Part shown: positions 1,408 to 16,549 of the stretch, piece after piece
Layout: every line of letters starts with the position of its first letter
How positions within the stretch are numbered: position 1 is the stretch's first letter
Assembly (NCBI GenBank): GCA_039818945.1
Contig: JBCBSZ010000001.1
Location: 1-24,000, forward strand
Length of the DNA stretch: 24,000 bases
Direction of reading: 5' to 3'
Source: Actinomycetota bacterium
GTDB lineage: Bacteria; Actinomycetota; Acidimicrobiia; Acidimicrobiales; Poriferisodalaceae
Notes under the pieces: model-generated
Seen by the model: only the letters and a program-made list of their open reading frames with translations
Told to the model about the DNA's origin: nothing
Databases searched by the model: none
Program-made: the position numbers and the translations under genes

Positions 1408-2108
1408 GCCTGATCGCTTCGACCACCCCCACCCCGCGCGTCGCGGTGGAGACCTGCGTCCCTGCGGCGGTCGCCGCGTGGCTCGACGGCCCCGCTCGAC
1501 ACAGCGGTCCGCTCACCGGGTACCGGCTGTTCGATCCGGTGACCGCCCGGGCCGTGCCGGAGGCCTCACGGGTCGACGACCCGGTCATCCAGATCCACGT
1601 CGCCGACGGCGCTGCCGCCGGGCACGGCGCGCTGCTGCGAGCGCTGCGGCGCCACGGCATCTCCGCTCGCGTCCGACGGCTCAGTGGTCTGGGCGTCGCA
1701 GCCCACCTCGTCGACGACAACGGGCGGCGGAGCTGGGTCGGCCCGGTCCTCGGGCGGCGGGTCGTGCCGGCCGGCGCCGAGGGCACGACCACACCGACCG
1801 TCGGGCTCGTGCTCCGGTTCCCCGACGCCGACGAGCTCGCCCGCGCCTGGCGTCTGCTCGACGAGATCGACGACGAGCTCTACGACCAGCAGGTGCTGGA
1901 CCGATCGGCCCACGTGCACCGATCGGACCGCCCTCCGGCGCACGCCGTGCCGGTCGGCGAGCTCCACGTCCGCGGCGACGACGGCAGCCGGCTGGTCCAC
2001 CTCCACCCGTCCTCCGGGCGGGCGGCGACCGCCTGGGTGCCGTCACGGCCTGGTCGGTTCGACCTCGGCGACTGGATCCACGACCACGGCGACCGGCTCA
2101 CGGCCTGA
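1404..2108 (+). CDS. Hypothetical protein (234 aa), no recognisable motif
   Basis: The ATG at 1404 forms an ATGA overlap with the DUF2064 stop. The frame has strong GC3 bias throughout and a normal (non-Arg/Pro-rich) composition. It is the last gene of a four-gene coupled unit. Confidence 0.55.
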   Translation: MSLIASTTPTPRVAVETCVPAAVAAWLDGPARHSGPLTGYRLFDPVTARAVPEASRVDDPVIQIHVADGAAAGHGALLRALRRHGISARVRRLSGLGVAAHLVDDNGRRSWVGPVLGRRVVPAGAEGTTTPTVGLVLRFPDADELARAWRLLDEIDDELYDQQVLDRSAHVHRSDRPPAHAVPVGELHVRGDDGSRLVHLHPSSGRAATAWVPSRPGRFDLGDWIHDHGDRLTA

Positions 2109-3639
2109 GCGCCACCCCGTCCAGCTCGGCCGGCAGCTCGTCCGTGCGCAACCACGCGTCGAACAGCCCCCGGAGCTCGCGCCCCGACAGCTCCTCGGCC
2201 AGGGACTCGAAGTCCTCCGTCGTCGCGTTCCCGCCGCCGTAGCGCTCGATCCAGGTCCGCAGGAGCTCGAAGAACGCCTCGTCGCCGATCTCGAGTCGCA
2301 GCGCGTGCAGCGTCAGCGCGCCGCGCTGGTAGACCTGCACGTCGAAGAGGTCGCCCTCGGGGTCCTGCACCCGGCGCTGGAGACCCGGGCCGAACGACGC
2401 CGTCTCCGCGATCCAAGCCGCCCAGTCGAAGCGCGGGTCGGAGTGGTCGCGCCACAACGCCTCCGAGTAGGTCGCGAAGCCCTCGTTCAGCCAGATGTCG
2501 CCCCACTCGCGGACGGTCACGTGGTTCCCGAACCACTGGTGGGCGGCCTCGTGGGCGACGATCAGCTCGACGAAGCCGCCGAGGCCGAGCACGTCGGCGC
2601 CGAAGATCGACAGGGTCTGGGTCTCCAACGCTCCCCCGAACCCGTCCTCGACCACGGCGGCGCCGTAGTTGTCGAACGGGTACGGCCCGAAGACCGACTC
2701 GAAGAAGTCGAGGATCTCGCCCTGCCGCGCGAAGCGCGGTGATGCTGCGTCGACGAGGTCGTCGTCGATGACGTTGCGCAGCGGCACCCCGCCGGCCGTC
2801 GTCCCCTCGTCGATGACCGTGAACCCGCCGATGAGCAGGGTAGTCAGGTACGTGGCCTGCGGGTGGGGCTGCTCGAAGACCCACGTGGTCGAGCCGGCCT
2901 CCTCCTCGCTGGAGACCAGCGTGCCCGACGCCCCGACGGTCAGCTCCGAGGGTGCGGTGATCCGGTAGGTGAAGGTCGCCTTGTCACTGGGGTGGTCGTT
3001 GGCCGGGTGGAACGTCGACGCCGACACCGGCTCGCCCGCGACGTAGGCGTACCCGTCGCGGGTGTGCCAACCCGAGGGGATCGGGACGTCGATGCCGGCC
3101 GCCGAGGTGTCCGACGGCCTCCCGGCGTAGGCGACCACGACGGTGAAGGCATCGCCGGACGCGAGCGGCTGCTCCGGCATGACCGCGAGCTCGGTCCCGA
3201 TCTGCTCGAAGTCCGCCGTCGCCCCGTCGACCTGCACCGACGAGACGGTGAGGCCGACCAGATCGAGGTGGAAGCGACCCAGGTCCTCGCTTGCGCTCGC
3301 GGTGATCGTTGCGGAGCCCTCGAGGGTCGCTCCCTCCGGCTCCCAGTCCAGGGCGACGTCGTAGTGCTCGACGTCGTAGCCACCGTTGCCGAAGGTGTCG
3401 ACGTAGGGATCGTCCACCCCGACGGCGCCGACGCCGACCGGCGCAGAGCTCGTGGTCGAGGGCGAGGTCCCGGTGGTGGACGTGGTTCGCGCCTCGGTCG
3501 TCGGCGGTGCGGCGGTCGTCGACGGGGCGGCGCCCTCGTCGTCAGCGGTACCGACCGAGCACGCCGTGACCGCGATGACGACGGCGAGCAGCGCCGACGC
3601 CATCGCTCGACGTCGGATCGGTGCAGCGACGGGATCCAT
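2098..3639 (-). CDS. M1-family zinc aminopeptidase (aminopeptidase N-like), probable lipoprotein
   Basis: Gluzincin signature VAHEAAHQWFGNHVTVREWGDIWLNEGFATY (HExxH-x18-E). GAMEN-position variant GGALET. N-terminus MDPVAAPIRRRAMASALLAVVIAVTAC has a lipobox-like VTAC followed by a Thr/Ser/Pro linker. Start is ATG 3639 (alternative ATG 3603). The ORF-track extension to 4041 runs through the divergent gene and is rejected. Confidence 0.85.
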   Translation of the reverse strand: MDPVAAPIRRRAMASALLAVVIAVTACSVGTADDEGAAPSTTAAPPTTEARTTSTTGTSPSTTSSAPVGVGAVGVDDPYVDTFGNGGYDVEHYDVALDWEPEGATLEGSATITASASEDLGRFHLDLVGLTVSSVQVDGATADFEQIGTELAVMPEQPLASGDAFTVVVAYAGRPSDTSAAGIDVPIPSGWHTRDGYAYVAGEPVSASTFHPANDHPSDKATFTYRITAPSELTVGASGTLVSSEEEAGSTTWVFEQPHPQATYLTTLLIGGFTVIDEGTTAGGVPLRNVIDDDLVDAASPRFARQGEILDFFESVFGPYPFDNYGAAVVEDGFGGALETQTLSIFGADVLGLGGFVELIVAHEAAHQWFGNHVTVREWGDIWLNEGFATYSEALWRDHSDPRFDWAAWIAETASFGPGLQRRVQDPEGDLFDVQVYQRGALTLHALRLEIGDEAFFELLRTWIERYGGGNATTEDFESLAEELSGRELRGLFDAWLRTDELPAELDGVALRP

Positions 3640-3663
3640 GCCCACAGAACGTACGGACTCCGA

Positions 3664-3702
3664 TCTGAGAGTTCCCGAAGAACCATCGAGACCGCTCTCA
3701 GA
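3664..3702. promoter_or_regulatory. 8-bp inverted repeat in the divergent peptidase promoter region
   Basis: TCTGAGAG (3664-3671), 23 nt, then CTCTCAGA (3695-3702), inside the 97-bp lower-GC intergenic region between the starts at 3639 (-) and 3737 (+). Confidence 0.25.
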
Positions 3703-3736
3703 CAGCTCACAGCGACGGTCCGGTTCGGTGGAGGAC

Positions 3737-4912
3737 ATGCTCACACGACGCACCTTCCTCGCCGGGCTCCTCGCGGCGGCGGTCACCGCCGGCGCCTGCT
3801 CCCCCGGCTCCGGCTCGGTGACCGCCGACCCGTCCACACCGGCGCCCAGCTCCACCTCGGCACCGGTCGCGACCGCCGCGGCGACGTCCAGCGTCGACGA
3901 GGACGTCCGCACGATGCTCGGCAACCTCGCCGACCGGTACCGCGCCGCCGAGGGTGCCTGGCCGGGCTTCGACCCGACCGAGCACCCCGCCGTCGTCGCC
4001 TTCCGCGACGGCGAAGAGGTGCAGCGCGTGGTCACGATCAACCACCCGGACCCCGACGCGCTCGGCGAGGCGACGGCGGTCGAGCTCGACGGTCTGCCCT
4101 TCGCCGCTCACCTCGTGACCGACCTGGTCGACCCCGGGTCTCTCGAGGCGATCCCGTCCTTCGACTTCACCTCCCAGCAGGGCGGCGTGAGCTCGTTCGT
4201 CCTGATCGCCGACCCGACCGATGCGTTCTTCGATCCGACGACCGACGAGTACGCCGCCACCTACCTCCACGAGCTCTTCCACCGCCATCAGATCCTCAGC
4301 TGGGTGGAGACCGGGTTCCAGGACATCGAGAACTACCCGCTCACCGCCGACAACCTCGCGCTGGCCACCCTCGAGGAGCGGGCGCTCGCCGCGGCGATGA
4401 CCGCACCGGACGACGACGAGCGAGACCTGGCCGCCCGCCGGTTCGTCGCCCTCCGCCTCCAGCGGCGCTCCGCGGAGTCGGCGGTCGCCGAGCTCGACGA
4501 CGCGCAGGAGGCGGCGGAGGGCACCGCACGGTGGATCGAGCACGCGACCGCAGGACAGGACGACGGAGCCACCTACGACGCCGACAACTTCGACCGCGAC
4601 CTCCAGACCGATCTCGGCGGCGTGCAGGGCGTCAAGGACACCTTCGCCTTCGGCCGCTTCTACGCCTCCGGGGCGGCGGTCGTCGAGTTGCTCGACCGGT
4701 TGGGCGTGGACGACTACCCCGGTCGGATCGCTCGTGGCGAGGCCCCGGCGACCGTGCTCGCCGAGGCGCTCAGCGTCTCCGCCGACGACGTGGACCAGCT
4801 CGTCGCCGACGCCCGGTCCGCCTACGACCCGTCCGCGGAGCTCGCCGACCAGTCGGCGGACGCGGCCGCGATCGCAGCCACCGAGCCGCCGGTCTTCGGC
4901 GAGGACTCCTGA
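3737..4912 (+). CDS. Putative secreted zinc metalloprotease lipoprotein (HExxH motif), family not recognised
   Basis: The ATG at 3737 is preceded by GGAGG 4 nt upstream. N-terminus MLTRRTFLAGLLAAAVTAGAC has a Tat-like RRxFLA and Cys lipobox, then a Ser/Thr/Pro linker. A single HExxH is present (YLHELFHRHQ). GC3 bias is good. Confidence 0.6.
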   Translation: MLTRRTFLAGLLAAAVTAGACSPGSGSVTADPSTPAPSSTSAPVATAAATSSVDEDVRTMLGNLADRYRAAEGAWPGFDPTEHPAVVAFRDGEEVQRVVTINHPDPDALGEATAVELDGLPFAAHLVTDLVDPGSLEAIPSFDFTSQQGGVSSFVLIADPTDAFFDPTTDEYAATYLHELFHRHQILSWVETGFQDIENYPLTADNLALATLEERALAAAMTAPDDDERDLAARRFVALRLQRRSAESAVAELDDAQEAAEGTARWIEHATAGQDDGATYDADNFDRDLQTDLGGVQGVKDTFAFGRFYASGAAVVELLDRLGVDDYPGRIARGEAPATVLAEALSVSADDVDQLVADARSAYDPSAELADQSADAAAIAATEPPVFGEDS

Positions 4913-4957
4913 CGCCGTGCCCCGGAGCGGACGGGTGCCGACTCGTACCATGACGCC

Positions 4958-5626
4958 GTGAACGGTCCACGGGTGCTGGTCGTCGAGGACGACGAGCAGA
5001 TCGCCTCGCTCGTGCAGCGGACCCTCGCCGGGGCCGGCATCGACAGCGACCTCGCGTCGACCGGACCCGACGGGCTGTGGAAGGCGCGGGAGGGCAGCTA
5101 CGGGGCCATCGTGCTCGACCTGATGCTGCCCGGCATGAACGGCTACGAGGTCTGCCGGACGCTGCGATCCGAGGGCGTCGCGACCGCGATCATCATGCTC
5201 ACCGCCAAGAGCGGCGAGTACGACGAGACCGACGGCTTCGAGATGGGCGCCGACGACTACCTGCGCAAGCCGTTCTCCACCGCCGTGTTGGCCCACCGCG
5301 TCCAGGCGCTCCTGCGCCGCACCCCGGGCACGACGGTCACCGAACGCCTGACCCGCGGCCAGCTGTCGTTCGACCTGCAGACCAGAACCTGTGAGCTCGA
5401 CGGGGCCGAGGTGGCGCTGACCGCTCGCGAGGCGACGCTGCTCGAGACCCTGCTCCGCAGCGGCGAGACGCCGCTCTCGCGGGCCGATCTGCTCGACCGG
5501 GTCTGGGGCATGGACTTCGACGGTGACCCGAACGTCGTCGACGTCTACGTCGGCTACCTCCGACGCAAGCTCGGTCGGGAGCGGATCGTGAACCGTCGCG
5601 GCGTGGGGTTCCGGGTGGCGCCGTGA
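4958..5626 (+). CDS. OmpR/PhoB-family response regulator
   Basis: Receiver domain (VLVVEDDE...IVLDLMLPGMNG...LTAK...ADDYLRKPF) plus a C-terminal winged-helix (LTAREATLLETLL...VWG...NVVDVYVGYLRRKL...RGVGFRV). GTG start. Confidence 0.9.
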   Translation: MNGPRVLVVEDDEQIASLVQRTLAGAGIDSDLASTGPDGLWKAREGSYGAIVLDLMLPGMNGYEVCRTLRSEGVATAIIMLTAKSGEYDETDGFEMGADDYLRKPFSTAVLAHRVQALLRRTPGTTVTERLTRGQLSFDLQTRTCELDGAEVALTAREATLLETLLRSGETPLSRADLLDRVWGMDFDGDPNVVDVYVGYLRRKLGRERIVNRRGVGFRVAP

Positions 5627-7008
5627 GGTCGCTGCGGGCCCGCATCACGCTGCTCGCCACCGTGGCGCTCGTGCTCGTGCTCGCGACCGCGGCGATCGTG
5701 ATCGTCGTGCTCGTCGAGCGCCAGCTCAGCAACGACCTCGCCGCCCAGAACGAGGCCACCCTGGCCCAGGTCTCGGCGGCCATCGCCGGCGGCCAGGACC
5801 CGGCGACCATCCGCCTGCCGCTCGGCACCGACGGCACCGAGTTCGTCATCACCAACGACGGCCGCTTCGTGCAGGCGACGCTCGTGGTGGTCACCGAGGA
5901 CGTCCTGGAGCCCGAGCTGACCGCTGACGACGTGATCGTCTTCGATCCCGGCTTCCCGTTCGCCTCGCTCGACGCCACCGATCCGTTCGTCGGCGGCGTC
6001 GTGTTCGTCGAGGACGTCCTCGACCAGCGGTTCTGGGACGTGACCTCGACGACGGCGGTGGCTCCCGACGGCGAGGAGTACCTCGTCGAGGCGTTCACCC
6101 CGACCCGCGTCGTCGATCGCAGCGTCGATCAGGTCCGGGCGGTGCTCTGGATCGTGATCCCGGCCCTGGCGGTCCTGTTCGCCCTCCTCGTCTGGTTCCT
6201 CACGGGGCGGACGTTGCGGCCGGTGGCGCTCATGACCGATCGGGCGAACCGGATCCGGTCCGACACGCTCCACGAGCGACTGGCCGAGCCGGGCACCGAC
6301 GACGAGATCGGCCGGCTGGCCGCGACACTCAACTCGATGCTCGAACGACTCGACCGCGGCGCGCAGCAGCAGCGCCGGTTCGTCTCCGACGCCTCACACG
6401 AGCTCAAGAGCCCGCTCACGGTGATGGTCGGCGAGGCCGAGCTGGCCGCGGGGAGCCGCGACGTCGAGCGGCTGGCGGAGGCCAACGAACGGGTGGTCGA
6501 GCGGGGCAGGAACCTGACCGCCCTGATCGACGACCTGCTCGCCCTCGCCCGATCGGACGAGGCCGCCTTCCGGCGGAGCGAGGTCGACCTCGACGACGTC
6601 GTGCGCCAGCAGGCTCGCCTCCAGCCCCGCGACGTCGACACGAGCGGCGTCGAGCCGGTCCGCCTCGACGCCGACGGGGCCGCCCTCTCACGGCTCGTGC
6701 GCAACCTGCTCGACAACGCCGCCCGCCACGCGAACGAGGCGGTCGCCGTGACGCTGACGGCCGACGCCGACGGTGCCGTGCTGGTCGTCGACGACGATGG
6801 CCCGGGCATCGCCGAGCACGAGCGCGACCGCGTCTTCGAACGCTTCGCACGGGCCGACGAGGCCCGGACCCGCGCGACCGGTGGCACGGGCCTCGGCCTG
6901 GCCATCGTGCAGGCCATCGCCCACGGGCACGGCGGGACGGTCGAGATCAGCACCGCACCGATCGGCGGGGCCCGATTCACCGTCCGTCTGCCCGACCGGA
7001 CCCCCTGA
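5623..7008 (+). CDS. Sensor histidine kinase (2 TM, about 150-aa extracytoplasmic domain, HAMP, HisKA, HATPase_c)
   Basis: GTGA overlap with the response regulator stop. H-box FVSDASHELKSPLT, N-box LVRNLLDNAARHA, G1 DDDGPGI, G2 GGTGLGLAIV. TM helices LLATVALVLVLATAAIVIVVLV and VLWIVIPALAVLFALLVWFL. Confidence 0.9.
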   Translation: MRSLRARITLLATVALVLVLATAAIVIVVLVERQLSNDLAAQNEATLAQVSAAIAGGQDPATIRLPLGTDGTEFVITNDGRFVQATLVVVTEDVLEPELTADDVIVFDPGFPFASLDATDPFVGGVVFVEDVLDQRFWDVTSTTAVAPDGEEYLVEAFTPTRVVDRSVDQVRAVLWIVIPALAVLFALLVWFLTGRTLRPVALMTDRANRIRSDTLHERLAEPGTDDEIGRLAATLNSMLERLDRGAQQQRRFVSDASHELKSPLTVMVGEAELAAGSRDVERLAEANERVVERGRNLTALIDDLLALARSDEAAFRRSEVDLDDVVRQQARLQPRDVDTSGVEPVRLDADGAALSRLVRNLLDNAARHANEAVAVTLTADADGAVLVVDDDGPGIAEHERDRVFERFARADEARTRATGGTGLGLAIVQAIAHGHGGTVEISTAPIGGARFTVRLPDRTP

Positions 7009-7046
7009 TCGATCACCTCCGGTTATCGATCGCACCCCAGAGACCA

Positions 7047-7076
7047 TTGGATCTTCGGCCGCCGGGAACCGACAAT
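7047..7076 (+). promoter_or_regulatory. Candidate promoter of the GRE operon
   Basis: TTGGAT (7047-7052), an 18-nt spacer, then GACAAT (7071-7076), in the conspicuously AT-richer 102-bp gap upstream of the GRE gene. Both hexamers sit inside the ACnATTGGA direct repeats. Confidence 0.25.
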
Positions 7077-7110
7077 TGGAGGAGGAACACGACGCAGCGA
7101 GGTACCGGCC

Positions 7111-8643
7111 ATGACGATCGACGAGCTCCGTGAGCAGGTGCGATCGGTCATCGACGATCCGACGCTGTCGTTCCACCTCCGCCGCCACCACCTCGCCGGC
7201 CTGGCGGAGTCGATCCTCCCCTACCCCGCGCTGAGCGACCGGTGCCGGGAGGCGCTCGACAAGGGCGTGATCTGCGACCTGTTCGAGGGCAACGCCCCGT
7301 ACCGGCCCCGCTACCTGCTCCCCGACTACGCCAGGGCGCTGGCCCAGGGTTTCGCCTTCCTCGAGCTCGAACCGCCCGACGACCTCGACGATGCGCTGGC
7401 GTTCCTGCTCATCATGTACACGCAGGTCCCGTCGATCACCGGCCATCCGGTCTACCTCGGCGACCTCGACTCCCTGCTGCTCCCGTACACCGCCGAGGTC
7501 TCCGACGAGCACCTGTACCGGTCGCTGCGCCGGTTCTGGATCTCGCTCGACCGGATGCTCCCCGACGCCTTCGTGCACACCAACATCGGGCCGGCGGACA
7601 ACCGGGTCGCCCGGACGATCCTGCGGCTCGAGCGCGAGCTCGACCAGATCGTCCCGAACGTGACGCTCAAGGTCGACCCGGAGCTCACGCCGGACGATCT
7701 CGTCGAGGACGCCGTCCGGACGGTCTTCGAGTGCGGCAAGCCGCACTTCGTCAATCACCCGATGATGGTGCGCGACCTCGGCGAGAGCTACGGCGTGGTC
7801 AGCTGCTACAACTCGCTGCCCGTCGGGGGCGGGGCGCACACCCTGGTGCGGCTCAACCTGCTCGAGGTGGTGCGTCGCCACGAGGGCGACCTCGACCGGT
7901 TCTTCGCCGAGACGCTGCCGGATCACGTCGAGCTGTGCGCCGAGCTGATCGAGGCCCGGGTGCGCCACCTCGTCGAGGTCAACCGCTTCTTCGAGCACGA
8001 CTTCCTCGCCGTCGAGGGGCTCCTGGATCTCGAGCGCTTCACGGCCATGTACGGCATCTTCGGTGTCGCCGAGGCGGTCGACCTGCTGATGGAGCACGAG
8101 GGCAGCGACGCCCGCTACGGCCACGACGCCGAGGCCAACCAGCTGTCCTACCGGCTGACCGAGGCCATCGCCGAGCTGGTCGCCGCCCGCCCGATGCCAC
8201 ACACCGCGGGCTCCGGCGGCCGGTGCCTGCTGCACTCCCAGTCGGGCATCGACAGCGACGAGGGGGTCACCGCCGGCACCCGGATCCCGATCGGGACCGA
8301 GCCCAGCATGTGGGAGCACATCGCCGCCGTCGCCCCCCACCACACACTCTTCGGCGCCGGCGTCTCCGACATCTTCCACGTGGAGGACACCGCCCGTCGC
8401 AACCCGCGGGCGATGGTCGACATCATCCGCGGTGCGCTCACGCAGGGCATGCGCGACTTCACGTTCAACCTCGCCACCAACGGCTTCGTCCGCATCACCG
8501 GCTACCTCGTGCGGAAGGCCGACCTCGAGTCGTTCGAGGAGTGCGGTGGACGCCACGGCAGCACCACCTTCGCCGCCGGCTCGATGCGCAACGCCGACGT
8601 GTCGCGCCGGGCCGTGAAGCGGGTGAGCGGCCGTGAGCGCTGA
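7111..8643 (+). CDS. yjjI: Glycyl-radical enzyme, YjjI-like (DUF3029-type short GRE), substrate unknown
   Basis: 510 aa. The C-terminal FVRITGYLVRK matches the glycyl-radical fingerprint R-[VI]-x-G-[YF] (compare PFL IRVSGYAVRF). The Gly464 codon is at 8500-8502. Candidate thiyl loop is VVSCYNSLPVGGG (Cys232). The gene is immediately followed by, and overlaps, a GRE-activase gene. Size and pairing match the E. coli YjjI/YjjW arrangement as I remember it. SD GAGG lies 7-8 nt before the ATG. Confidence 0.72.
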   Translation: MTIDELREQVRSVIDDPTLSFHLRRHHLAGLAESILPYPALSDRCREALDKGVICDLFEGNAPYRPRYLLPDYARALAQGFAFLELEPPDDLDDALAFLLIMYTQVPSITGHPVYLGDLDSLLLPYTAEVSDEHLYRSLRRFWISLDRMLPDAFVHTNIGPADNRVARTILRLERELDQIVPNVTLKVDPELTPDDLVEDAVRTVFECGKPHFVNHPMMVRDLGESYGVVSCYNSLPVGGGAHTLVRLNLLEVVRRHEGDLDRFFAETLPDHVELCAELIEARVRHLVEVNRFFEHDFLAVEGLLDLERFTAMYGIFGVAEAVDLLMEHEGSDARYGHDAEANQLSYRLTEAIAELVAARPMPHTAGSGGRCLLHSQSGIDSDEGVTAGTRIPIGTEPSMWEHIAAVAPHHTLFGAGVSDIFHVEDTARRNPRAMVDIIRGALTQGMRDFTFNLATNGFVRITGYLVRKADLESFEECGGRHGSTTFAAGSMRNADVSRRAVKRVSGRER

Positions 8644-9493
8644 GCGGCGGGGGTTGGTCAACCGCTGCCTGCCGTTCAGCATGGTCGACGGTCCGGGCAA
8701 CCGGTTCGTCGTGTTCCTGCAGGGCTGCAACTACGACTGCGTCGGGTGCCACAACCCCCACACGATCAACGCCTGCAACGGGTGCGACGTGTGCGTCGAG
8801 GCCTGCCCCGAGCTGGCGCTCACGATGCGCCCCGGCGCACCGCCCGCGCTCGATCTCGACGCCTGCACCGACTGCGACCGATGCGTCGAGGAGTGCGGCT
8901 TCGACTCGACCCCGCTGGCGCGCGAGCTCACGGTGGCCGAGCTGCTCGATCGGGTCCGCCCCCACGCTCCGTTCCTCTCCGGCATCACCGTCTCCGGCGG
9001 CGAGGCGACGCTGCAGGCCGGGTTCGTCCGCGACCTCTTCGCCGCGACCAAGGCCGATCCCGAGCTGCGGCACCTCACGACCATGGTCGACACGAACGGC
9101 TCGGCGCCGCAGGAGGTCTGGGACCTGCTCGCCCCGGTCACCGACGGCTTCCTCGTCGACCTGAAGGCCTGGGATCCGGCCGTGCACCAGCGCCTGACGA
9201 GCGCCCCCATCGGTCCGGTGCTCGACTCGATCGCCCACCTGGCCGCGCTCGACCTGCTCCACGAGGTCCGGATGCTGATCGTCGGCGACGAGAACGACCG
9301 GCACGGCGACGTCACCGCCGCCGCTGCCTGGCTGCGCTCCGTCGCCCCCGACGTGCCGGTCAAGATGTACGGCTTCCGCCATCACGGGACCCGGCCCCAG
9401 GCGGCCTCCCTCCGGGAGCCGACCGGCGAGGAGCTGCGCCACCTCGCCGAGATCGTCCGCACCACCGGCGAGCGCGAGGTCGTGCTCGTCTGA
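8633..9493 (+). CDS. yjjW: Glycyl-radical enzyme activating protein (radical SAM, YjjW-like)
   Basis: 286 aa. Radical-SAM cluster GCNYDCVGCHNP (CxxxCxxC followed by the HNP typical of GRE activases). Two ferredoxin-like Cys motifs (CNGCDVCVEACP, CTDCDRCVEEC). SAM-binding-type GITVSGGEATLQ. The GTG start overlaps the GRE stop by 11 nt. Confidence 0.85.
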   Translation: MSAERRGLVNRCLPFSMVDGPGNRFVVFLQGCNYDCVGCHNPHTINACNGCDVCVEACPELALTMRPGAPPALDLDACTDCDRCVEECGFDSTPLARELTVAELLDRVRPHAPFLSGITVSGGEATLQAGFVRDLFAATKADPELRHLTTMVDTNGSAPQEVWDLLAPVTDGFLVDLKAWDPAVHQRLTSAPIGPVLDSIAHLAALDLLHEVRMLIVGDENDRHGDVTAAAAWLRSVAPDVPVKMYGFRHHGTRPQAASLREPTGEELRHLAEIVRTTGEREVVLV

Positions 9494-9508
9494 ACCGCGG
9501 TCCCGGCG

Positions 9509-10429
9509 ATGGGTACCGTCGTCGGCATGGCCGTCGACCTCGAGCTGCTCCGCTCGTTCGTCGCGGTCGCCGAGGAGGGCCACGTCGGACGGGCCGCAGC
9601 GCGGCTCTACGTCTCGCAGCCGGCCCTGACCAAGCGGCTCCACCGACTCGAGGAGCAGGTCGGCGCCTCCCTGTTGCAACGGGCCGGTCGCGGCATCGAG
9701 CTCACCGAGGCCGGACGGTCGCTGGCCGATGAAGCGTCCTCGATTGTGGCCACCGCCGACGCCGCGGTCGAGCGGGCCCGGCACGTCGCCGGTGGAACCG
9801 CCGACCAGATCTCGATCGGCTTCGTCGCGCCGATGCCCCACGAGATCACCACCGACCTGCTCCGAGCCGCCCGCGACCGGCCGGGGCCCGACGTCGCGCT
9901 CCGCTCGCTCGCGTGGGACGAGCAGCTGGCCTCGGTGCTCGCCGGCGCCGTCGACGTCGCCCTGGTGCGGGGACCGATCGAGGGACTTCCCGAGGCCGGC
10001 CGGATCGGCGACGGCCTGCGCTGCGAGCTGCTCTTCGAGGAGCGGCGGGTCGCCGCGTTCGCCGTCGATCACCCGCGGGCGACGGAGGACGTGATCGAGC
10101 TGGCCGACCTGGCCGACGAACCGATCGTCGCACCCGAGGTGAACACGAGCTACTGGACGGTCGACCCGAGACCCGACGGCCGATCACCCCGACTCGGTCC
10201 GGCCGTGTCGACGGTCGTGGAGATGCTCGAGGTCGTCGCATCGGGACAGGCGATGGTCCTGACCGCCGAGTCGGTGAGCACCTACTACCAGCGACCCGAC
10301 GTGGCCTACGTGCCGGTCGCCGACCTCTCGCCGTCGACCGTGCACCTCGTCTCGGGCGACCCGCCGACGGCAGCGGTCGCCGAGCTGACCGAGGAGATCA
10401 GGGAGCGATCGGCACCGCTGCGGGGGTGA
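9509..10429 (+). CDS. LysR-family transcriptional regulator
   Basis: N-terminal HTH LELLRSFVAVAEEGHVGRAAARLYVSQPALTKRLHRLEEQVGASLLQR plus a LysR substrate-binding-type C-terminal half. Start is ATG 9509 or ATG 9527. Confidence 0.9.
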   Translation: MGTVVGMAVDLELLRSFVAVAEEGHVGRAAARLYVSQPALTKRLHRLEEQVGASLLQRAGRGIELTEAGRSLADEASSIVATADAAVERARHVAGGTADQISIGFVAPMPHEITTDLLRAARDRPGPDVALRSLAWDEQLASVLAGAVDVALVRGPIEGLPEAGRIGDGLRCELLFEERRVAAFAVDHPRATEDVIELADLADEPIVAPEVNTSYWTVDPRPDGRSPRLGPAVSTVVEMLEVVASGQAMVLTAESVSTYYQRPDVAYVPVADLSPSTVHLVSGDPPTAAVAELTEEIRERSAPLRG

Positions 10430-10441
10430 CAGACTCCCCCG

Positions 10442-11986
10442 GTGGCCGACGACCAGACGTTCCACGACGACATCGAGGGGTACTGCGGCCGACTGAGCCA
10501 TCGCCCAGGTGAGACCGCCCAGCTCCACGTCTCGACCCGAGCTGACCGGTACGACGTGACCGTCGAGCGGTGGGGAGCAGAGCGTGAGCTCGTCTGGTCG
10601 GCGGCCGGGCTGACGGGGGTCTGGACGCCGCCGCCCGACGATGCCGACGCCGCGGGCTGCAGCTGGCCGGTCTCGGTCGAGATCCCGATCGGCGAGGGGT
10701 GGCGCAGCGGCTTCCACCTCGTCACGCTCACCGCGGTCGGTGCCGAACCCGGCCGAGACGTCGCCCACGCCGGCTTCGTGGTCCGCGGTCCGATCGACGT
10801 CGACGAGCGAGCCCCGATGCTGCTCGTGCTCGAGACGAACACCTGGAACGCCTACAACACCTGGGGCGGACGCAGCCTCTACACCGGTGGGCACCGCGTG
10901 TCGTTCGAGCGGCCGTTCGGCCGCGGGATGCTCTGTCGGCCGGAGATCGACCGCGACGACCGCAAGGCCCGTCCGGTCCGCTGGCGGGAGACCCCCGACG
11001 CCGACGGTCTGATCTTCCAGGAGCACCGCACGGCCAACGCCTACCCGTCGGCGATCGGCTCGACCGGCTGGTTCACCCACCCCCGCCGGTTCGTCGAGTG
11101 GGCCGAGGCCGCGGGCTACCGCTTCGACGTGGCGGTCTCGACCGATCTCGACACCGATCCGGAGGCGCTCGACGGCTACGAGCTCGTCGTGAGCGTCGGC
11201 CACGACGAGTACTGGTCGGCTCCCCAGCGCGACGCGATCGAGGCCCACGTCCGCAGCGGCGGAGCCTTCGCCTCGTTCTCCGGCAACACGATGTTCTGGC
11301 AGGTCCGCCACGAGGGCTCGTCCATGGTGTGCCACAAGTACCGGGCGCACCTCGACGACCCGGTCGTCGCCGAGGGCCGGGTCGCGGAGGCGACCGGGAT
11401 GTGGGCCGACCCGATCGTCGGCCGGCCCGAGTGGTCGCTGCTCGGCGCCGGCTCCGCCTTCGGCCTCTACCACCGCTTCGGTCAGGCGACCGCCCGCGGC
11501 GTCGGTGGGTTCGTCGTCTACCGGGCCGACCACTGGTTGGTGGAGGGCACGGGTCTGCGCTACGGCGACGTGCTCGGCGCCGACGACGGCGTCGTCGGCT
11601 ATGAGACGCTCGGCTGCCCGATCACCCTCGACGAGCTACAGCTGCCCGTGCCCTGGCCCCGCGACGACCTGCCCGCCGACCTCGAGATCGTCGGCCACGT
11701 CGCGTCGAGCAACCTCGGCGTCGGCGAGTACCCGAAGTCGATCGCGGCGCTCAGCGACCAGGGCGATCTGGAGTTCATCGCCACCCGACTCCACGGCGAC
11801 ACGAGCGAGCGCAACCTCGCACGGGTGCGCAACGGCAACGCCGTGATGGCGGTCGGACGCCCGTTCGGCCCGGGCGGCGGCGAGGTCGTGACGGTCGGGA
11901 CGACGGACTGGGTCTTCGGTCTGGCCGACGATCCCGCCGTCGCCCGCGTGACCGCGAACGTCCTCGATCGACACCGGTCGGGGTAG
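10442..11986 (+). CDS. N,N-dimethylformamidase large-subunit-like (DUF6605-type) family protein
   Basis: Motifs I associate with this family: LLVLETNTWNAYNTWGG, VSVGHDEYWSAPQRD, ASFSGNTMFWQVR, VVGYETLG. 514 aa. GTG start 12 nt after the LysR stop. The family assignment is from memory and was not searched. Confidence 0.55.
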   Translation: MADDQTFHDDIEGYCGRLSHRPGETAQLHVSTRADRYDVTVERWGAERELVWSAAGLTGVWTPPPDDADAAGCSWPVSVEIPIGEGWRSGFHLVTLTAVGAEPGRDVAHAGFVVRGPIDVDERAPMLLVLETNTWNAYNTWGGRSLYTGGHRVSFERPFGRGMLCRPEIDRDDRKARPVRWRETPDADGLIFQEHRTANAYPSAIGSTGWFTHPRRFVEWAEAAGYRFDVAVSTDLDTDPEALDGYELVVSVGHDEYWSAPQRDAIEAHVRSGGAFASFSGNTMFWQVRHEGSSMVCHKYRAHLDDPVVAEGRVAEATGMWADPIVGRPEWSLLGAGSAFGLYHRFGQATARGVGGFVVYRADHWLVEGTGLRYGDVLGADDGVVGYETLGCPITLDELQLPVPWPRDDLPADLEIVGHVASSNLGVGEYPKSIAALSDQGDLEFIATRLHGDTSERNLARVRNGNAVMAVGRPFGPGGGEVVTVGTTDWVFGLADDPAVARVTANVLDRHRSG

Positions 11987-12022
11987 GCACCGCCGCGGGA
12001 TCTCCCTCGGACCTGGCCGGAC

Positions 12023-12046
12023 GCGGTGCCGGCCCCGGGGCACCGC
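12023..12046 (+). terminator. Hairpin after the DMFase-like gene (candidate terminator)
   Basis: GCGGTGCC (12023-12030), an 8-nt loop, then GGCACCGC (12039-12046), 37 nt after the TAG at 11984-11986. No U-tract. Confidence 0.25.
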
Positions 12047-12102
12047 CACTACCGTCGGGGCCCGATGAGGAGGACTCGACGCCCCCGGAGGCGCATCGCA
12101 CC

Positions 12103-13344
12103 GTGAGCGCCTGCGGCTCCTGCGGCCACCCGCTCCGCGACGACGATGCGTTCTGCTCGAGCTGTGGGGCTCGCCGGGAGCCGGCGGTCGTCAGCCTGAC
12201 CGGGGGCGGTGAGACCGCGGTCGAGCAGCGGACGGTGGTCGGGGCTCGCCGTCGCAACCTGGTGCCGCTCGTCGCCGTCGTCGCGCTCCTCGCCGTCGCC
12301 GGCCTCGTGGCGCTGTCGCGGTCGACCGACGAGCCGGAGGCCGAGGCGTCGCCGACCACGACGATCGCCTCGCCACCGACCGAACCACCAACCACCGAGC
12401 CCGCACCGCCGCCGCCCGACCCGGTCGGCGACGACGAGGACCTCGTGCTCGACGGTCTCGACCAGCTCGGCCTGGGACCGAACCGGCTCGCGGTGCGCTC
12501 CGGCGAGGTCGTGTTCACCTACGACCCCGACGCCGGCTCGCTGCTCGCCCGCCACGACCTCACCCGATCGAGCGGCGGCGACATCTGGTTCGGCGACGAC
12601 GAGCTGATCATGCGGAGCCAGGGTCAGACCGGACCGGGCATGTCGGTCCTCGAGCTCGACACCGGCCGCTTCCGCAACTACGTCGGCATCAACTTCATCG
12701 TCAGCGACGCCTCCGCCGACCTGGTGGTGGGCCAGGAGTTCGGTCGCTTCTTCGGTGGTGGACGATGGGCGGTCGTCGACGTGGACGGGTTCTCGATCGA
12801 CCGGGTCGAGATCGCCGGCACACCCGCCTTCACGTTCCTCGCCGCGGCCGGTGACGGCGTGCTGCTCGACGAGGGCGGCCAGATCGTGCACCTCCGCGAC
12901 GGCGAGCGCACCGCCCTCGGCTCCGGCACCCTCATCTCGTGGTCCGAAGAAGCCGCCCTCATCGGCACCTGCGACGCCGAGCTCGACTGCCGGACCCGAT
13001 CGGTCGCCTTCGACGGCAGCGACATCGTCGAGGGGCCCGGGCTGACCCTGCCGCCGCTCTCGCTCGGTGGTGAGGTGCGGTGGCTCTCGCCCGACGGTCG
13101 GATCCTCGCCGCGGTCGACCCCGCCGCTCGCCTGCTCGACCTGATCGACGTCGAGACCGGGGAGTCCCTCCCCCACGAGCTGGGCCGGACCGGGACCCAC
13201 TCGCTGCTCTGGACCCCGGACTCGACCAGGGTGATCGTGGCCGACGACGACGCCGTCGCCGTCGTCGACGTCGCCTCGGGCGCCGTGGTCAGCGCCCCCG
13301 CATCGGCGAGGGTGGACCAGGTCGGCTTCGTCGACCCGACCTGA
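12103..13344 (+). CDS. Zinc-ribbon / single-TM / PD40-type beta-propeller membrane protein, function unknown
   Basis: N-terminal CGSCGHPL-x9-CSSCG zinc ribbon. TM helix LVPLVAVVALLAVAGLVAL. Pro/Thr linker PPTEPPTTEPAPPPPDP. C-terminal repeats of the WLSPDGRILAAV / LLWTPDSTRVIVAD (TolB/PD40-like) type. GTG start, with GGAGG 11 nt upstream. Confidence 0.6.
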   Translation: MSACGSCGHPLRDDDAFCSSCGARREPAVVSLTGGGETAVEQRTVVGARRRNLVPLVAVVALLAVAGLVALSRSTDEPEAEASPTTTIASPPTEPPTTEPAPPPPDPVGDDEDLVLDGLDQLGLGPNRLAVRSGEVVFTYDPDAGSLLARHDLTRSSGGDIWFGDDELIMRSQGQTGPGMSVLELDTGRFRNYVGINFIVSDASADLVVGQEFGRFFGGGRWAVVDVDGFSIDRVEIAGTPAFTFLAAAGDGVLLDEGGQIVHLRDGERTALGSGTLISWSEEAALIGTCDAELDCRTRSVAFDGSDIVEGPGLTLPPLSLGGEVRWLSPDGRILAAVDPAARLLDLIDVETGESLPHELGRTGTHSLLWTPDSTRVIVADDDAVAVVDVASGAVVSAPASARVDQVGFVDPT

Positions 13345-13348
13345 CGGG

Positions 13349-13855
13349 TCACTCCGGGCGCTGCTTCGCCGCCTCCGGCGAGCGGGTCCACATGATCGCC
13401 GAGTCGAAGCTGAGCTTGTCGTCCGGCTCGAACTCGATGACGACCCGCGCCGGGCTGTCGAGGAAGCGCTGGAAGGTCGTCGCGGCCACCTCGTCGTCGG
13501 GCCGCAGACGGCGGGCGAACTCCGGGTAGAACCAGTCCTTCACGTCACGACCGGAGTGCACGGTGCACGACCCCTTGTAGGTGACGGTCTTGCCCGAGCC
13601 GAGCGGCGTCCCGAAGCTGCTGATGCACACCGAGGCCCGTGGGAACCGGCGGATCGCCGAGATCCGGGCGCGCCGCTCAGCGGCCGTGAGCCAGAGCTTC
13701 CCCTCCTTCGGGAGGTACGACATGATCACGCCGAACGCCTCGCCGGCCCGGTTCGTCCACATGAAGGTGCACTCGTTCTGGACGGCGAGGAGCTGCTCCT
13801 CGAGCTCGTCGCTCAGCGCGCACTCGGTCAGGTCCTCGTAGTTGTCGTCCGCCAT
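13349..13855 (-). CDS. Pyridoxamine 5'-phosphate oxidase (PPOX)-like split-barrel flavoprotein family protein
   Basis: 168 aa with good GC3. The pattern LSDELEEQLL...CTFMWTNRAGEAFGVIMSY...GKLWLTAAERRARISAIRRFPRASVCIS resembles PPOX/FMN- or F420-binding split-barrel proteins. It lies 22 nt downstream of the aldolase gene on the same strand. Confidence 0.5.
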   Translation of the reverse strand: MADDNYEDLTECALSDELEEQLLAVQNECTFMWTNRAGEAFGVIMSYLPKEGKLWLTAAERRARISAIRRFPRASVCISSFGTPLGSGKTVTYKGSCTVHSGRDVKDWFYPEFARRLRPDDEVAATTFQRFLDSPARVVIEFEPDDKLSFDSAIMWTRSPEAAKQRPE

Positions 13856-13877
13856 GGCGGCACCCTACGCGAGGCCC

Positions 13878-14750
13878 TCAGCAGACTCGGCGGGCCTCCG
13901 AGGTCGCCGACACCAGCATGTCGAACCGCTCCACACCGACCGACGAGAGACGGCCTCGTCGGTCTGGCGCGCCGATCGAGTCGCCCCAGATCGCGCGGCC
14001 CGCCATGAACCCGGAGCAGCCGTTCGCACAGGCCACCTCGGTCTGGCGGACGAACAGCTCGAAGGGGGCGCCCCACGACAGCACCGCCCAGGGTTGCCCG
14101 GTGACCTCGTCGACCCGACGACAGGCGTCGTCCCACCGCTCGGGATGGTCGGCCGCGGACGGGAAGGGCATCTTGATCACGTCGGGCCCGAGCGCCCCGA
14201 TGCGCTCGGCGGAGGCGACGATCGTGCGCTCGCGATCCTCGACGTCGACGACCTCGTACGGCACCGGCTCGACGAAGAGCGGGAGACCGACCTCGCCGCA
14301 CCCGTCGACGACCGAGCGGATCAGGTCGTCCTGGGCGGCCGTGACCTCGCCACGGTCGGGGCGGTACAGCACGAGCAGCTTGGCCGCGGACGCACCGACC
14401 TCGGCAGCACGGCGTGGGCTCCAGCCCTCGAGGAGTTGGTTGGTGACGACCCCGGCATCACCGAGGTACCCCTGCGCCTCGAGCGCGCACAGGGTGCCGA
14501 CCCCCGCGGGGACCAGCCCGGCCCGGAGGAGCTGATCGATGGACAGCTCGGGGTCGAGCATCACCGCCGAGGGGCGGTCGCCGAACACCTCGACGACATC
14601 GATCTTGAAGCGCACGAGCTCCTCGACCGACACGCCGTCGGGATCGTCGCGGTCGAACTCGACGCGCAACGAGTCGCGGTGGTCGATCGCCAGGACGGTC
14701 AGCCGGCCGTCGTCGTCGACGAGCGGCCGGAGCGCCTCGCGCCCGATCAC
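13878..14750 (-). CDS. Class I aldolase of the LacD/DUF2090 type; likely 5-dehydro-2-deoxyphosphogluconate (DKGP) aldolase of the inositol pathway
   Basis: LTVLAIDHRDSL near the N-terminus and GPDVIKMPFP (candidate Schiff-base Lys) resemble tagatose-bisphosphate/YihT-type class I aldolases and the DUF2090 domain fused to IolC in other bacteria. It sits directly after iolC-iolB. The GTG start is 8 nt after the iolB stop. Confidence 0.6.
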   Translation of the reverse strand: MIGREALRPLVDDDGRLTVLAIDHRDSLRVEFDRDDPDGVSVEELVRFKIDVVEVFGDRPSAVMLDPELSIDQLLRAGLVPAGVGTLCALEAQGYLGDAGVVTNQLLEGWSPRRAAEVGASAAKLLVLYRPDRGEVTAAQDDLIRSVVDGCGEVGLPLFVEPVPYEVVDVEDRERTIVASAERIGALGPDVIKMPFPSAADHPERWDDACRRVDEVTGQPWAVLSWGAPFELFVRQTEVACANGCSGFMAGRAIWGDSIGAPDRRGRLSSVGVERFDMLVSATSEARRVC

Positions 14751-14757
14751 CTCCGCA

Positions 14758-15558
14758 TCACGGGGCGACCTTCGGCAGCTCCCAGCCGCGGGCCTCCCAG
14801 TCGTCCTCGATCCACGTGTACGCCGAGTGGAAGCACGGCGGCGTGGCCCGCTCGTCGCCGATCAGCTCGCCGGCGAGGTAGTTGAGGAAGAACATGTGCG
14901 AACCCGGCGCACCGACGCTGGAGTGGTAGCCCTTCGGGACGGTGACGACGTCGCCGTCGTGGGCGACGTGGGTCTCGTCGAAGGGCTCGTCGACGCGCCA
15001 GTTCCGGTGGAGGCAGAAGCCATCGGACGGGTCGGTGCGGAAGTAGTAGGTCTCCTCGAGGTACGGCGACCCGTCGAAGCCATCGTGGCAGTGCGGCGGC
15101 CAGCCCGACCACATGCCCCGGGGCACGTAGACCTCGTAGATGATGAGGCGCTCGGCCGGCAGGGGCGACGCGAGGGCGTGGACGACCTGGCGGCGGGCCA
15201 TGCCGCCGCCGCGGATCTCGGTCCGCATCTCGTCCGGCGTGAACACCCGGACCTCGTAGCGGCCCTCGGCGGGTGCCGACCCGACGGCGCACTCGCCCCC
15301 GCCCTCGATGGTGAGCGACGCCCCGGGCGGTGCGTAGAGGATGTTCGGCATCTCATCGAACACCGACGAGCGGGACAGCTCGACGTCGCGACCGTCGACG
15401 GTCGCGGTGATCGAGCCGGACAGCGGCACCACGGCCACCTCCTGCCCGGCCTGACCGACGTCGGTCGCCGAGGTGGGACGGTGCACGGCGAAGGACAGGA
15501 ACCGCCAGCCCTCGGTCTCGGGCGTGAGGCTCACGAGTGGTCGTTCGCGTTCGGTCAT
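14758..15558 (-). CDS. iolB: 5-deoxy-glucuronate isomerase
   Basis: 266-aa cupin. MWSGWPPHCHDG...YLEETYYF...GYHSSVGAPGSHMFFLNYLAG matches IolB hallmarks. ATGA overlap with the iolC stop. Confidence 0.85.
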   Translation of the reverse strand: MTERERPLVSLTPETEGWRFLSFAVHRPTSATDVGQAGQEVAVVPLSGSITATVDGRDVELSRSSVFDEMPNILYAPPGASLTIEGGGECAVGSAPAEGRYEVRVFTPDEMRTEIRGGGMARRQVVHALASPLPAERLIIYEVYVPRGMWSGWPPHCHDGFDGSPYLEETYYFRTDPSDGFCLHRNWRVDEPFDETHVAHDGDVVTVPKGYHSSVGAPGSHMFFLNYLAGELIGDERATPPCFHSAYTWIEDDWEARGWELPKVAP

Positions 15559-16529: not shown

Positions 16530-16549
16530 GGCCAGCCCCTCCCCGGTCT

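Follow-up and report, generated by a model that had tools for sequence, protein, structure and literature searches.

Gene content and layout of the block

We analyzed a window of 24,000 nucleotides (positions 1 to 24,000 of contig JBCBSZ010000001.1, assembly GCA_039818945.1). The source metagenome-assembled genome (MAG) is placed in Acidimicrobiia, with a completeness of 95.6% and a size of 6.0 Mb. The features of the locus are the following:

2098-10430, no strand: 8.3-kb segment missing at the syntenic site of the congeneric genome G002 (DNA matches)
About 3737-4912, plus strand: gene for a putative secreted HExxH lipoprotein (GC3 frame plot, HELFH motif, RRTFLAG signal-like segment)
4958-5626, plus strand: response regulator (RR) gene, OmpR/PhoB type (Response_reg and Trans_reg_C)
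5623-7008, plus strand: sensor histidine kinase (HK) gene (HAMP, HisKA with H259, HATPase_c, two hydrophobic stretches)
7009-7110: 102-bp gap between the kinase gene and yjjI
7021-7051, plus strand: LysR-linked box GGTTATCGAT-N13-CCATTGGA, conserved at LysR-linked loci, its 3' half overlapping a -35-like TTGGAT
7071-7076, plus strand: -10-like hexamer GACAAT, a candidate promoter element (by-eye alignment of upstream regions)
7111-8643, plus strand: yjjI, YjjI-family glycyl radical enzyme (PF11230, TIGR04040)
8633-9493, plus strand: yjjW, radical-SAM activase (TIGR04041)
9509-10429, plus strand, probable start ATG 9527: lysR, for a LysR-type regulator from the clade linked to yjjI (HTH_1 and LysR_substrate)
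10442-11986, plus strand: DMFA2-like gene, encoding a short DMFA2_C-family protein of 514 aa (PF20254)
12103-13344, plus strand: gene for a zinc-ribbon/TM protein, starting 116 nt past the DMFA2-like gene

The open reading frame list and the domain searches agree with the earlier note on the six genes from the response regulator to the DMFA2-like gene, all of which are on the plus strand with the identities claimed. The GC3 of every gene of this block is 0.90-0.96, indicating that the genes are real. The short junctions are confirmed as well: RR and HK overlap by 4 nt, yjjI and yjjW by 11 nt, and 12 nt separate lysR from the DMFA2-like gene; the 102-bp gap is indeed AT-richer (61.8% GC vs 72.2% GC in the window). 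The 15 nt given between the activase and LysR genes hold if translation starts at ATG 9509; however, ATG 9527 is the likelier start, because the collection's gene call is 300 aa long and the alignment with orthologues begins only at residue 5-7, and the spacing then becomes 33 nt, the same as in L112. Similarly, the strand and junctions of the co-directional block stand, but the run is longer than six genes, with an extra gene at each end: the HExxH lipoprotein gene, 45 nt upstream of the response regulator gene, and the zinc-ribbon gene.

The radical enzyme, its activase and the linked LysR regulator

The window's YjjI matches PF11230 (E 6e-193, 642 bits vs a cut-off of 23) and TIGR04040 (676.8 bits vs a cut-off of 498.3), carries the glycyl-radical motif R[IV]xG[YFW] as RITGY, with Gly464, and has Cys232 in VSCYNS, which is invariant in our alignment (A1). 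YjjW scores 300.5 bits against TIGR04041 (cut-off 250.2) and contains CX3CX2C at 32-39 and ferredoxin-type CX2CX2CX3C motifs at 48-58 and 78-88. The YjjW-type activase gene lies alongside yjjI, as it does in the 80 fetched loci except two without a listed yjjW hit; besides this pairing, no conserved neighbour was found in the 80 loci. No other glycyl radical enzyme was found in the 95.6%-complete MAG, i.e., no PFL-type domain and no NrdD.

The closest characterized relatives are YjjI and YjjW of Escherichia coli K-12. The window's YjjI is 47% identical to its E. coli counterpart over 99% of its length, both NCBIfam cut-offs are exceeded (PF11230 was formerly DUF3029), the overlapping activase gene and the three Fe-S motifs are shared, and the E. 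coli motif VTG465YMVR corresponds to RITG464Y. In living E. coli cells, a probe for radicals labelled Gly465 of YjjI (bioRxiv 10.64898/2026.08.13.742689). The E. coli pair is divergent from deoCABD and lacks a LysR gene, whereas in the window and a clade of Acidimicrobiia-type loci the pair comes with a LysR gene dedicated to it and with the conserved box. Neither system has an assigned substrate, and the literature searched reports no reaction for the YjjI family. To our knowledge, YjjI/YjjW is among the few families of glycyl radical enzymes still lacking an assigned reaction. Under anoxia, YjjW would be expected to turn Gly464 of YjjI into a glycyl radical; YjjI may then act via Cys232 on a small substrate.

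LysR has the canonical N- and C-terminal architecture (HTH_1, E 9.8e-22; LysR_substrate, E 3.8e-22). The earlier note described a LysR gene embedded co-directionally in its presumed target operon; this arrangement is real and conserved, being present in five further distinct yjjI-yjjW-lysR loci, and the cut contigs L112 and L113 show yjjW-lysR. All seven of the nearest LysR homologues looked up (46-76% identity) adjoin yjjI-yjjW; the homologues P0022 and P0027, from Streptomyces and Pseudonocardia (40-42% identity), do not adjoin yjjI. The 11 yjjI-yjjW-linked LysRs form a single clade (support 100/99), the branching of which mirrors the YjjI tree. Compared with classical LysR-type regulators, the domains are the same, and a conserved bipartite candidate site likewise ends at the -35 of the presumed target promoter; three GTDB loci (L017, L021, L038) even have the classical layout, with lysR divergent from yjjI and the same box. 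In contrast, the regulator gene is last in its presumed target unit in the window and the five other distinct loci and first in L120, and the window's candidate box has no obvious T-N11-A dyad.

A box scoring at least 16 bits (leave-one-out PWM) is located 43-60 nt 5' of yjjI in 12 of 12 LysR-linked loci; the median score in 80 other loci was -1.3 bits, and the sole strong outlier, L047, is a contig ending just past yjjW. The box occurs once in the 6.0-Mb genome and in 0/100 shuffles of the window, and a search across 207 loci yielded only nine hits, each at yjjI or a P450 gene. In a by-eye alignment, the -10-like GACAAT falls where related loci have CATACT/CATAAT. The box, co-occurring with lysR and sitting at the -35-like element, is thus a putative LysR site at the target promoter. 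A consensus scan of 3400-13900 detected no promoter and no terminator, so that co-transcription of the kinase gene and yjjI is possible. Nevertheless, given the conserved LysR-linked box and the promoter-like elements in the 102-bp gap, the radical-enzyme genes most likely have a promoter of their own and do not simply prolong the two-component operon. LysR is predicted to bind the box at 7021-7051, overlapping the -35 of this promoter; a co-inducer would prompt it to activate yjjI-yjjW as well as lysR itself. With lysR in third place in its own presumed target unit, this would result in positive feedback.

Judged by comparative genomics, yjjI-yjjW-lysR is a conserved, self-contained cassette. 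The window's YjjI clusters with the LysR-linked L117 and L120, and the YjjI of the congeneric G001 is of the other clade; by this tree placement, the yjjI copy of the window is foreign to its genus.

The two-component pair

The receiver and winged-helix domains of RR, the HAMP-HisKA-HATPase_c organization of HK and the overlap of their genes identify an OmpR/PhoB-type two-component system. No NCBIfam equivalog cut-off was reached by either protein, the best models being heavy-metal and CseB-like ones, below cut-off. The extracytoplasmic domain of the kinase, described earlier as roughly 150 aa, is about 130 aa long, between hydrophobic stretches 3-36 and 167-199. In the three loci with kinase orthologues (52-60% identity), the RR partner is always present and yjjI never adjoins; these loci are of unrelated context. 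The HExxH lipoprotein had no match in the Pfam search; in L122, a homologue (42% identical) is encoded directly 5' of the RR-HK orthologues. The lipoprotein gene probably goes with the two-component pair rather than with the radical enzyme.

The DMFA2-like protein

Assignment of the last gene of the block to the dimethylformamidase (DMFase) family holds by profile and by fold. DMFA2_C (PF20254) is matched with E 2.6e-64 and 218.4 bits, against a gathering score of 27. The top Foldseek matches are N-acetyl-(R)-beta-phenylalanine acylase (8HUY) and DMFase (6LVB), for a query model with a mean pLDDT of 54. The acylase (8HUY/8I59/8I5A) is the best hit in sequence (E 4e-8 with a single sequence, 4e-18 with a profile) and in fold (E about 5e-11, TM 0.42-0.50 at this pLDDT); it is an amide-cleaving enzyme of the same fold family, although it is about 770 aa long with extra domains and only about 13-17% identical. 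N,N-dimethylformamidase DmfA1/DmfA2 of Paracoccus sp. DMF (EC 3.5.1.56; 6LVB; PMC7686228) shares the DMFA2_C domain (profile E 1.9e-14; Foldseek E about 1e-9). The iron site of DMFase is of the 2-Tyr-1-Glu type (Y399, Y440, E521), H519 and N547 are essential, and the enzyme is inactive without the small subunit, encoded by dmfA1 (PMC7686228). Four of these five catalytic residues are conserved: in the profile hits to 8HUY and 6LVB, Y138, H254, E256 and N282, which are invariant among orthologues, align to Y399, H519, E521 and N547. Opposite Y440, the other iron-binding Tyr, the window's protein has W180 and the orthologues have Trp/Phe, in a stretch that is poorly aligned and modelled with low confidence.

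The protein does not have the three-domain large subunit of about 760 aa: it has 514 aa vs about 762 aa in DMFase, of which residues about 45-335 are skipped in the profile alignment. No dmfA1 gene adjoins at this locus, where the neighbours are lysR on one side and, on the other, a 116-nt gap without an ORF followed by the zinc-ribbon gene. The product is a putative metal-dependent amidohydrolase and should not carry the name dimethylformamidase.

Genomic neighbourhood of the DMFA2-like gene

Orthologues of the DMFA2-like gene (82-86%) are present in G001, G002 and L112. The gene adjoins yjjW in none of 90 other yjjW-bearing loci; yjjI, yjjW or a window-type LysR gene was found neither at the 80 metagenome loci with DMFA2-like homologues nor near the orthologues in six related genomes (G001, G002, G009, G011, G023, G034). 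No conserved neighbour of the family emerged from the 80 metagenome loci, and co-occurrence across 61 related genomes was not significant (4/7 vs 19/54, Fisher p = 0.41). In L016, which belongs to the window's YjjI clade, a 64%-identical DMFA2-like gene lies 8.8 kb off on the opposite strand, with at least eight unrelated genes between; chance alone would produce about one case of this kind.

The 8.3-kb segment contains the genes for an M1 peptidase, the HExxH protein, RR and HK, and yjjI, yjjW and lysR. Contig C172 of G002 joins window positions 777-2097 to 10431-11970, its two genes being spaced by 31 nt, so that the gene 5' of the DMFA2-like gene differs from the window's lysR. No flanking repeats were found around the segment. 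The lysR/DMFA2 junction, absent from the congeneric G001 and G002, is shared only by L112 and L113, a pair of almost identical metagenome contigs from the window's genus (spacing 9-12 nt; LysR 76% and DMFA2 86% identical to those of the window); the adjacency is therefore not unique to the window genome and could be under selection. By its distribution, the DMFA2-like gene is a stand-alone gene, resident in the genus, and no conserved partner of the radical enzyme. Either gain of the 8.3 kb here or loss in the relative would have placed it 12 nt behind lysR. Given this placement, it is probably transcribed by read-through from the cassette; non-coding DNA proper to this gene is absent on its 5' side, so that its expression at this locus probably depends on the cassette.

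Interpretation of the six-gene block

The earlier note had proposed a dedicated pathway for a small, possibly nitrogen-containing substrate. Conservation of the neighbourhood had been set beforehand as one test, and the combination is absent from all other loci examined (90 yjjW-bearing, 86 DMFA2-like and 3 kinase-orthologue loci). The parts have different histories and the neighbourhood is not conserved, and a single pathway is not supported. We consider it likely that three modules, each inherited independently, have come to lie side by side in the block: (i) the RR-HK pair, probably tied to the adjoining upstream HExxH lipoprotein gene; (ii) the yjjI-yjjW-lysR cassette, in which LysR co-evolves with the enzyme; and (iii) the stand-alone short DMFase-family putative metallo-amidohydrolase gene, resident in the genus. 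Since these units have separate inheritance, the six genes probably do not constitute one pathway. A pathway in which the outside domain of the kinase and LysR sense a nitrogen-containing substrate, and the radical enzyme and the amidase convert it, is improbable in our estimation. The common strand, the very short junctions and the lack of a match inside the block in the consensus terminator scan would be consistent with it, as would the role in nitrogen metabolism that one paper proposed because E. coli yjjI is co-expressed with genes responsive to nitrate/nitrite (PMC3228777). Against it stand, however, the absence of the combination from every compared locus, the conserved LysR-linked, probable promoter region between the kinase gene and yjjI, and the separate histories of the three parts. 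Joint regulation of yjjI by the two-component system and LysR, e.g., in response to an envelope or redox signal and with the amidase gene unrelated, we judge highly improbable. The kinase gene stops 102 bp 5' of yjjI on the same strand, and the hairpin past this stop is no stabler than shuffled sequence (z = -0.15), so that read-through is possible; yet the orthologous RR/HK pair occurs at no other yjjI locus (the few hits are 28-35% identical and several kb off), yjjI never adjoins the kinase orthologues, and the box and its spacing are unchanged in other LysR-linked loci without any kinase.

Operon capture, i.e., the genus drawing the DMFA2-like amidohydrolase into the LysR-controlled transcript, where it would share its metabolite with the radical enzyme or act on a neighbouring one, is conceivable but unlikely. 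The window and L112/L113 have diverged and yet both keep the 9-12 nt junction, and the gene lacks an upstream region of its own. Moreover, another enzyme, an orthologous P450, is encoded directly after the cassette in five relatives, and the P450 gene of L117 carries its own copy of the box (27.5 bits), which implies that the slot after lysR can hold regulon members. Conversely, the DMFA2-like gene is not preceded by a box, the genome having a single one; in G002 the gene preceding it is another one, and its surroundings differ again in G001 and five further genomes; yjjI-yjjW is beside 0/80 loci of its family, and there is no co-occurrence signal. The broader proposition that the LysR-controlled yjjI-yjjW picks up a lineage-specific second enzyme (P450 or DMFase-like) acting on a common LysR-sensed metabolite we regard as distinctly unlikely; if it is true, these enzymes would be the first chemical handle on the YjjI-family substrate. 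In that case, the P450 might offer an oxygen-dependent and the amidohydrolase a hydrolytic alternative to the radical route, which is sensitive to oxygen.

Under the preferred reading of three juxtaposed modules, the window does not reveal a new pathway; instead, trustworthy and untrustworthy neighbour clues can be told apart. The two-component system and the amidase-like gene are unsuitable for guilt-by-association on YjjI. The LysR effector is the most direct experimental route to the YjjI substrate, because LysR co-evolves with YjjI and has a recognizable putative operator. In marine relatives, the orthologous P450 appears under the same LysR-linked box, a lead worth separate study.

Composition of the block

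The plus-strand block at 4958-11986 probably consists of three modules standing side by side: a two-component pair, a yjjI-yjjW-lysR cassette that would be transcribed from its own LysR-box promoter, and a DMFA2-like (amidase) gene that, in this genus, would probably be reached by read-through from the cassette. The window (72% GC) covers the opening 24 kb of contig C1 in a 6.0-Mb metagenome-assembled genome (MAG) of 313 contigs, G000; MAGs assigned to Acidimicrobiia / Ilumatobacteraceae are its named relatives. The ORF list gives six ORFs with junctions exactly as described in an earlier note made from the sequence alone, GC3 values of 0.90-0.96 indicate that all six are real genes, and profile searches uphold each assigned identity.

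Identification of the six plus-strand genes by profile searches
RR: OmpR-type response regulator
HK: HAMP-HisKA-HATPase_c kinase
yjjI (7111-8643): YjjI-family glycyl radical enzyme (TIGR04040, 677 bits vs cut-off 498)
yjjW: YjjW activase (TIGR04041, 300 bits vs cut-off 250)
lysR: LysR-type regulator
DMFA2-like gene (10442-11986): DMFA2_C-domain protein (PF20254, E 2.6e-64)

Some details required revision. The lysR gene stands, but its start is probably the ATG at 9527 rather than 9509; the outside loop of the kinase measures ~130 aa, not roughly 150; and the run of six same-strand genes extends by one further gene at each end, as a gene for an HExxH lipoprotein precedes RR and one for a zinc-ribbon/TM protein follows the DMFA2-like gene, both on the same strand. 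An Rfam search of the window gave zero matches.

The YjjI protein carries its radical glycine in the motif RITG464Y and has the conserved Cys232; YjjW contains CX3CX2C and two ferredoxin-type motifs. YjjI is the sole glycyl radical enzyme detected in G000, where a whole-genome search found neither a PFL-type Gly_radical domain nor NrdD. Also present is a gene for a cytochrome bd oxidase (C19:41323-42582), in keeping with life under microaerobic or facultative conditions. A sequence search of solved structures with YjjI returned zero matches. In the literature searched, YjjI is uncharacterised, with its reaction assigned in no paper, and no paper was found that brings together a glycyl radical enzyme, an activase and a LysR-type regulator.

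The cassette, its regulator and its probable promoter region

We surveyed 80 yjjI loci from one-genome-per-species contigs and four from related genomes. The activase gene adjoins yjjI in 78 of the 80 loci (for the other two, no yjjW hit was listed), and clustering of the ORFs that flank the 84 loci yielded yjjW only, with no further conserved partner; clusters of ABC ATPases were rejected as partners, being generic paralogues. A divergent LysR homologue (41-44% identity) lies upstream of yjjI in three surveyed loci. As for the window's own LysR, yjjI-yjjW adjoin all seven of the nearest homologues whose contigs were looked up (46-76% identity). The order yjjI-yjjW-lysR, as in the window, recurs in five distinct loci (L114/L115, L116, L117, L118 and L119); the cut contigs L112/L113 show yjjW-lysR, and L120 has lysR-yjjI-yjjW. 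Homologues at 40-42% identity from Streptomyces and Pseudonocardia are not beside yjjI. When 48 LysR proteins were placed in a tree, all 11 yjjI-linked regulators fell in one clade (support 100/99), the internal groups of which match those of the YjjI tree. The window's LysR belongs with the radical enzyme.

The LysR-linked loci also have in common an operator-like box, GGTTATCGAT-N13-CCATTGGA, upstream of yjjI (window 7021-7051), followed after 18-19 nt by the -10-like CATACT (GACAAT in the window). Scored with a leave-one-out weight matrix, the box reaches at least 16 bits in 12 of 12 LysR-linked loci, always 43-60 nt upstream of the start codon, versus a median of -1.3 bits in 80 loci that lack the regulator. 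A single strong outlier was seen, L047, which lies on a contig that stops just past yjjW. The strict pattern matched nine of 207 fetched loci and none of 100 shuffled versions of the window, and the copy at 7021 is its sole occurrence in the 6.0-Mb genome. The box lies in the 102-bp gap between HK and yjjI (7009-7110), which is indeed AT-richer than the window as a whole, at 61.8% GC against 72%. Since the box is conserved and unique in the genome, this gap is most readily interpreted as a LysR-dependent promoter region belonging to the cassette itself, to which LysR would bind. A scan of 3400-13900 for consensus promoters and terminators found none and is uninformative at 72% GC; no RNA fold of the four intergenic gaps beat shuffled sequence. 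A hairpin at 7007-7031 with an anti-SD loop received no support for a special status, its 3' arm being part of the conserved box.

The DMFA2-like gene

Orthologues of this gene show 82-85% identity in the congeneric genomes G001 and G002 and 66-68% across the family's other genera; in these related genomes, none lies near yjjI or a LysR of the window's type. In G002, a short spacer separates the match to window 777-2097 from the match to 10431-11970 that comes next, with 31 nt between the two genes. Because these flanking matches sit together, window 2098-10430 represents an 8.3-kb indel, comprising the genes for an M1 peptidase and the HExxH protein, RR, HK, yjjI, yjjW and lysR, with ends that coincide with gene boundaries. 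Terminal repeats flanking the segment were only GC-rich chance matches, and neither integrase nor tRNA evidence points to a mobile element. A second indel relative to G002 spans 11971-18277. It holds genes for the zinc-ribbon/TM protein, a PNPOx-like protein, a DeoC/LacD-type aldolase, a PfkB kinase and a 530-aa unknown protein, which separate the DMFA2-like gene from a SARP-type regulator; ~540 bp lie between those two in G002.

None of the fetched yjjI loci has an adjacent DMFA2-like gene, and this is not an effect of contig ends, since 65 of 90 yjjW-bearing loci extend at least 2.5 kb past yjjW. One locus, L016, has a DMFA2-like match 8.8 kb from yjjW, on the other strand and beyond at least eight unrelated genes; it was rejected as a partner, since chance alone should produce about one case of this kind. 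Conversely, 80 metagenome loci of the DMFA2-like family (35-73% identity) contain no yjjI, yjjW or orthologous LysR, clustering of flanking genes in 85 loci revealed no conserved neighbour at all, and presence/absence across 61 related genomes shows no association (Fisher p = 0.41). The exception is L112/L113, two almost identical metagenome contigs from an organism of the same genus, with yjjW-lysR-DMFA2-aldehyde dehydrogenase; thus, at least two lineages within the genus have the lysR/DMFA2 junction. Both gain in the common ancestor of the window and L112/L113 and loss in G002 are compatible with the pairwise identities. The YjjI proteins of the window and of G001 belong to different clades, the G001 copy being of the Ilumatobacteraceae type, and for this reason the cassette in the window appears to have arrived by horizontal transfer. 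The DMFA2-like gene, in contrast, is resident and stands alone.

A profile built from 12 DMFA2-like orthologues matched N-acetyl-(R)-beta-phenylalanine acylase (E 4e-18) and Paracoccus dimethylformamidase (E 2e-14), and the protein is a member of this fold family. The same two enzymes rank first in a Foldseek search with an AlphaFold model from a shallow alignment, which is poor (mean pLDDT 54) and supports the fold-family match only. The invariant Y138, H254, E256 and N282 align with Y399, H519, E521 and N547 of dimethylformamidase (PMC7686228), whereas its second iron-binding tyrosine, Y440, stands opposite Trp/Phe in a weakly aligned stretch. The protein is probably a metal-dependent amide hydrolase. 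The name dimethylformamidase was rejected: there is no equivalent of residues ~45-335 of that enzyme and, unlike in dimethylformamidase, no small-subunit gene adjoins.

Genes beside the cassette and alternative readings of the block

The slot after the cassette is occupied in five LysR-linked loci, all from metagenome assemblies, by an orthologous cytochrome P450 gene (63-76% identity), placed after lysR in L116-L119 and after yjjW in L120.

Cytochrome P450 genes in LysR-linked loci
L116:8995-10215
L117:~6987-8201 (box at L117:6895-6925)
L118:6929-7675
L119:6953-8188
L120:9376-10596

The L117 gene has a second box copy of its own (27.5 bits) ~60 nt before it, and a weak one (15.3 bits) is present in L116; the P450 and the oxygen-sensitive radical enzyme may share a regulon. 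This filled slot in marine relatives, the L117 box and the junction kept in two lineages speak for a lineage-specific functional recruitment of the amidase gene to the cassette. Set beside the gene's solitary occurrence elsewhere, we regard such recruitment as rather unlikely. That all six genes serve one pathway for a small, possibly N-containing substrate, as the earlier note proposed, is a good deal harder to maintain: no conserved neighbourhood was found, and the block more probably resolves into three modules. Co-regulation of yjjI by the two-component system appears very improbable.

Matches to RR and HK near surveyed yjjI genes are few, of 28-35% identity and kilobases off, and orthologues of the kinase (52-60% identity) always have their regulator partner in otherwise unrelated surroundings; the RR-HK pair is a unit separate from the cassette. 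A homologue (L122:4865-6256, 42% identity) of the window's HExxH (HELFH) lipoprotein-like gene (3737-4912) precedes the RR-HK orthologues in L122, and this shared position suggests a three-gene HExxH-RR-HK signalling unit; both HExxH proteins lack a Pfam domain.

No orthologue of the cassette-linked P450 was found in the window's genome, where the best match (41% identity) is on contig C15; the closest solved P450, the unnamed 8YHN, gives no substrate clue. On the same contig, the DMFA2-like gene has a paralogue with 48% identity (C15:70046-71548), which lies ~0.5 kb from a cytochrome P450 gene (C15:72047-73222).

Other elements upstream of yjjI

Some 55-100 nt before yjjI, three loci in which a 10-kb range contains no LysR gene (L018, L019 and L025) have a diverged box, GGTTACCGA-N13-CCAGTGGA, in many cases with CACTGGACAAA after it; a related regulator may act there in trans. 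In loci of the other YjjI clade (L011 of G001, L010, L012, L045, L064, L040 and L068), a GGGNCCTT-N-GGGNCC-type motif, seen by eye only, lies ~40-90 nt upstream of yjjI; it occupies the position of the box and is missing from the window's 102-bp gap. One enzyme family may be under two regulatory regimes. An Ilumatobacter sp. MAG (L026:~9860-9960) has two tandem copies of a ~25-nt palindromic element, CACCTGGGGTCAGACCCCAGGTGTT, just upstream of yjjI, and short tandem heptamer repeats occupy the same place in L041 and L031.
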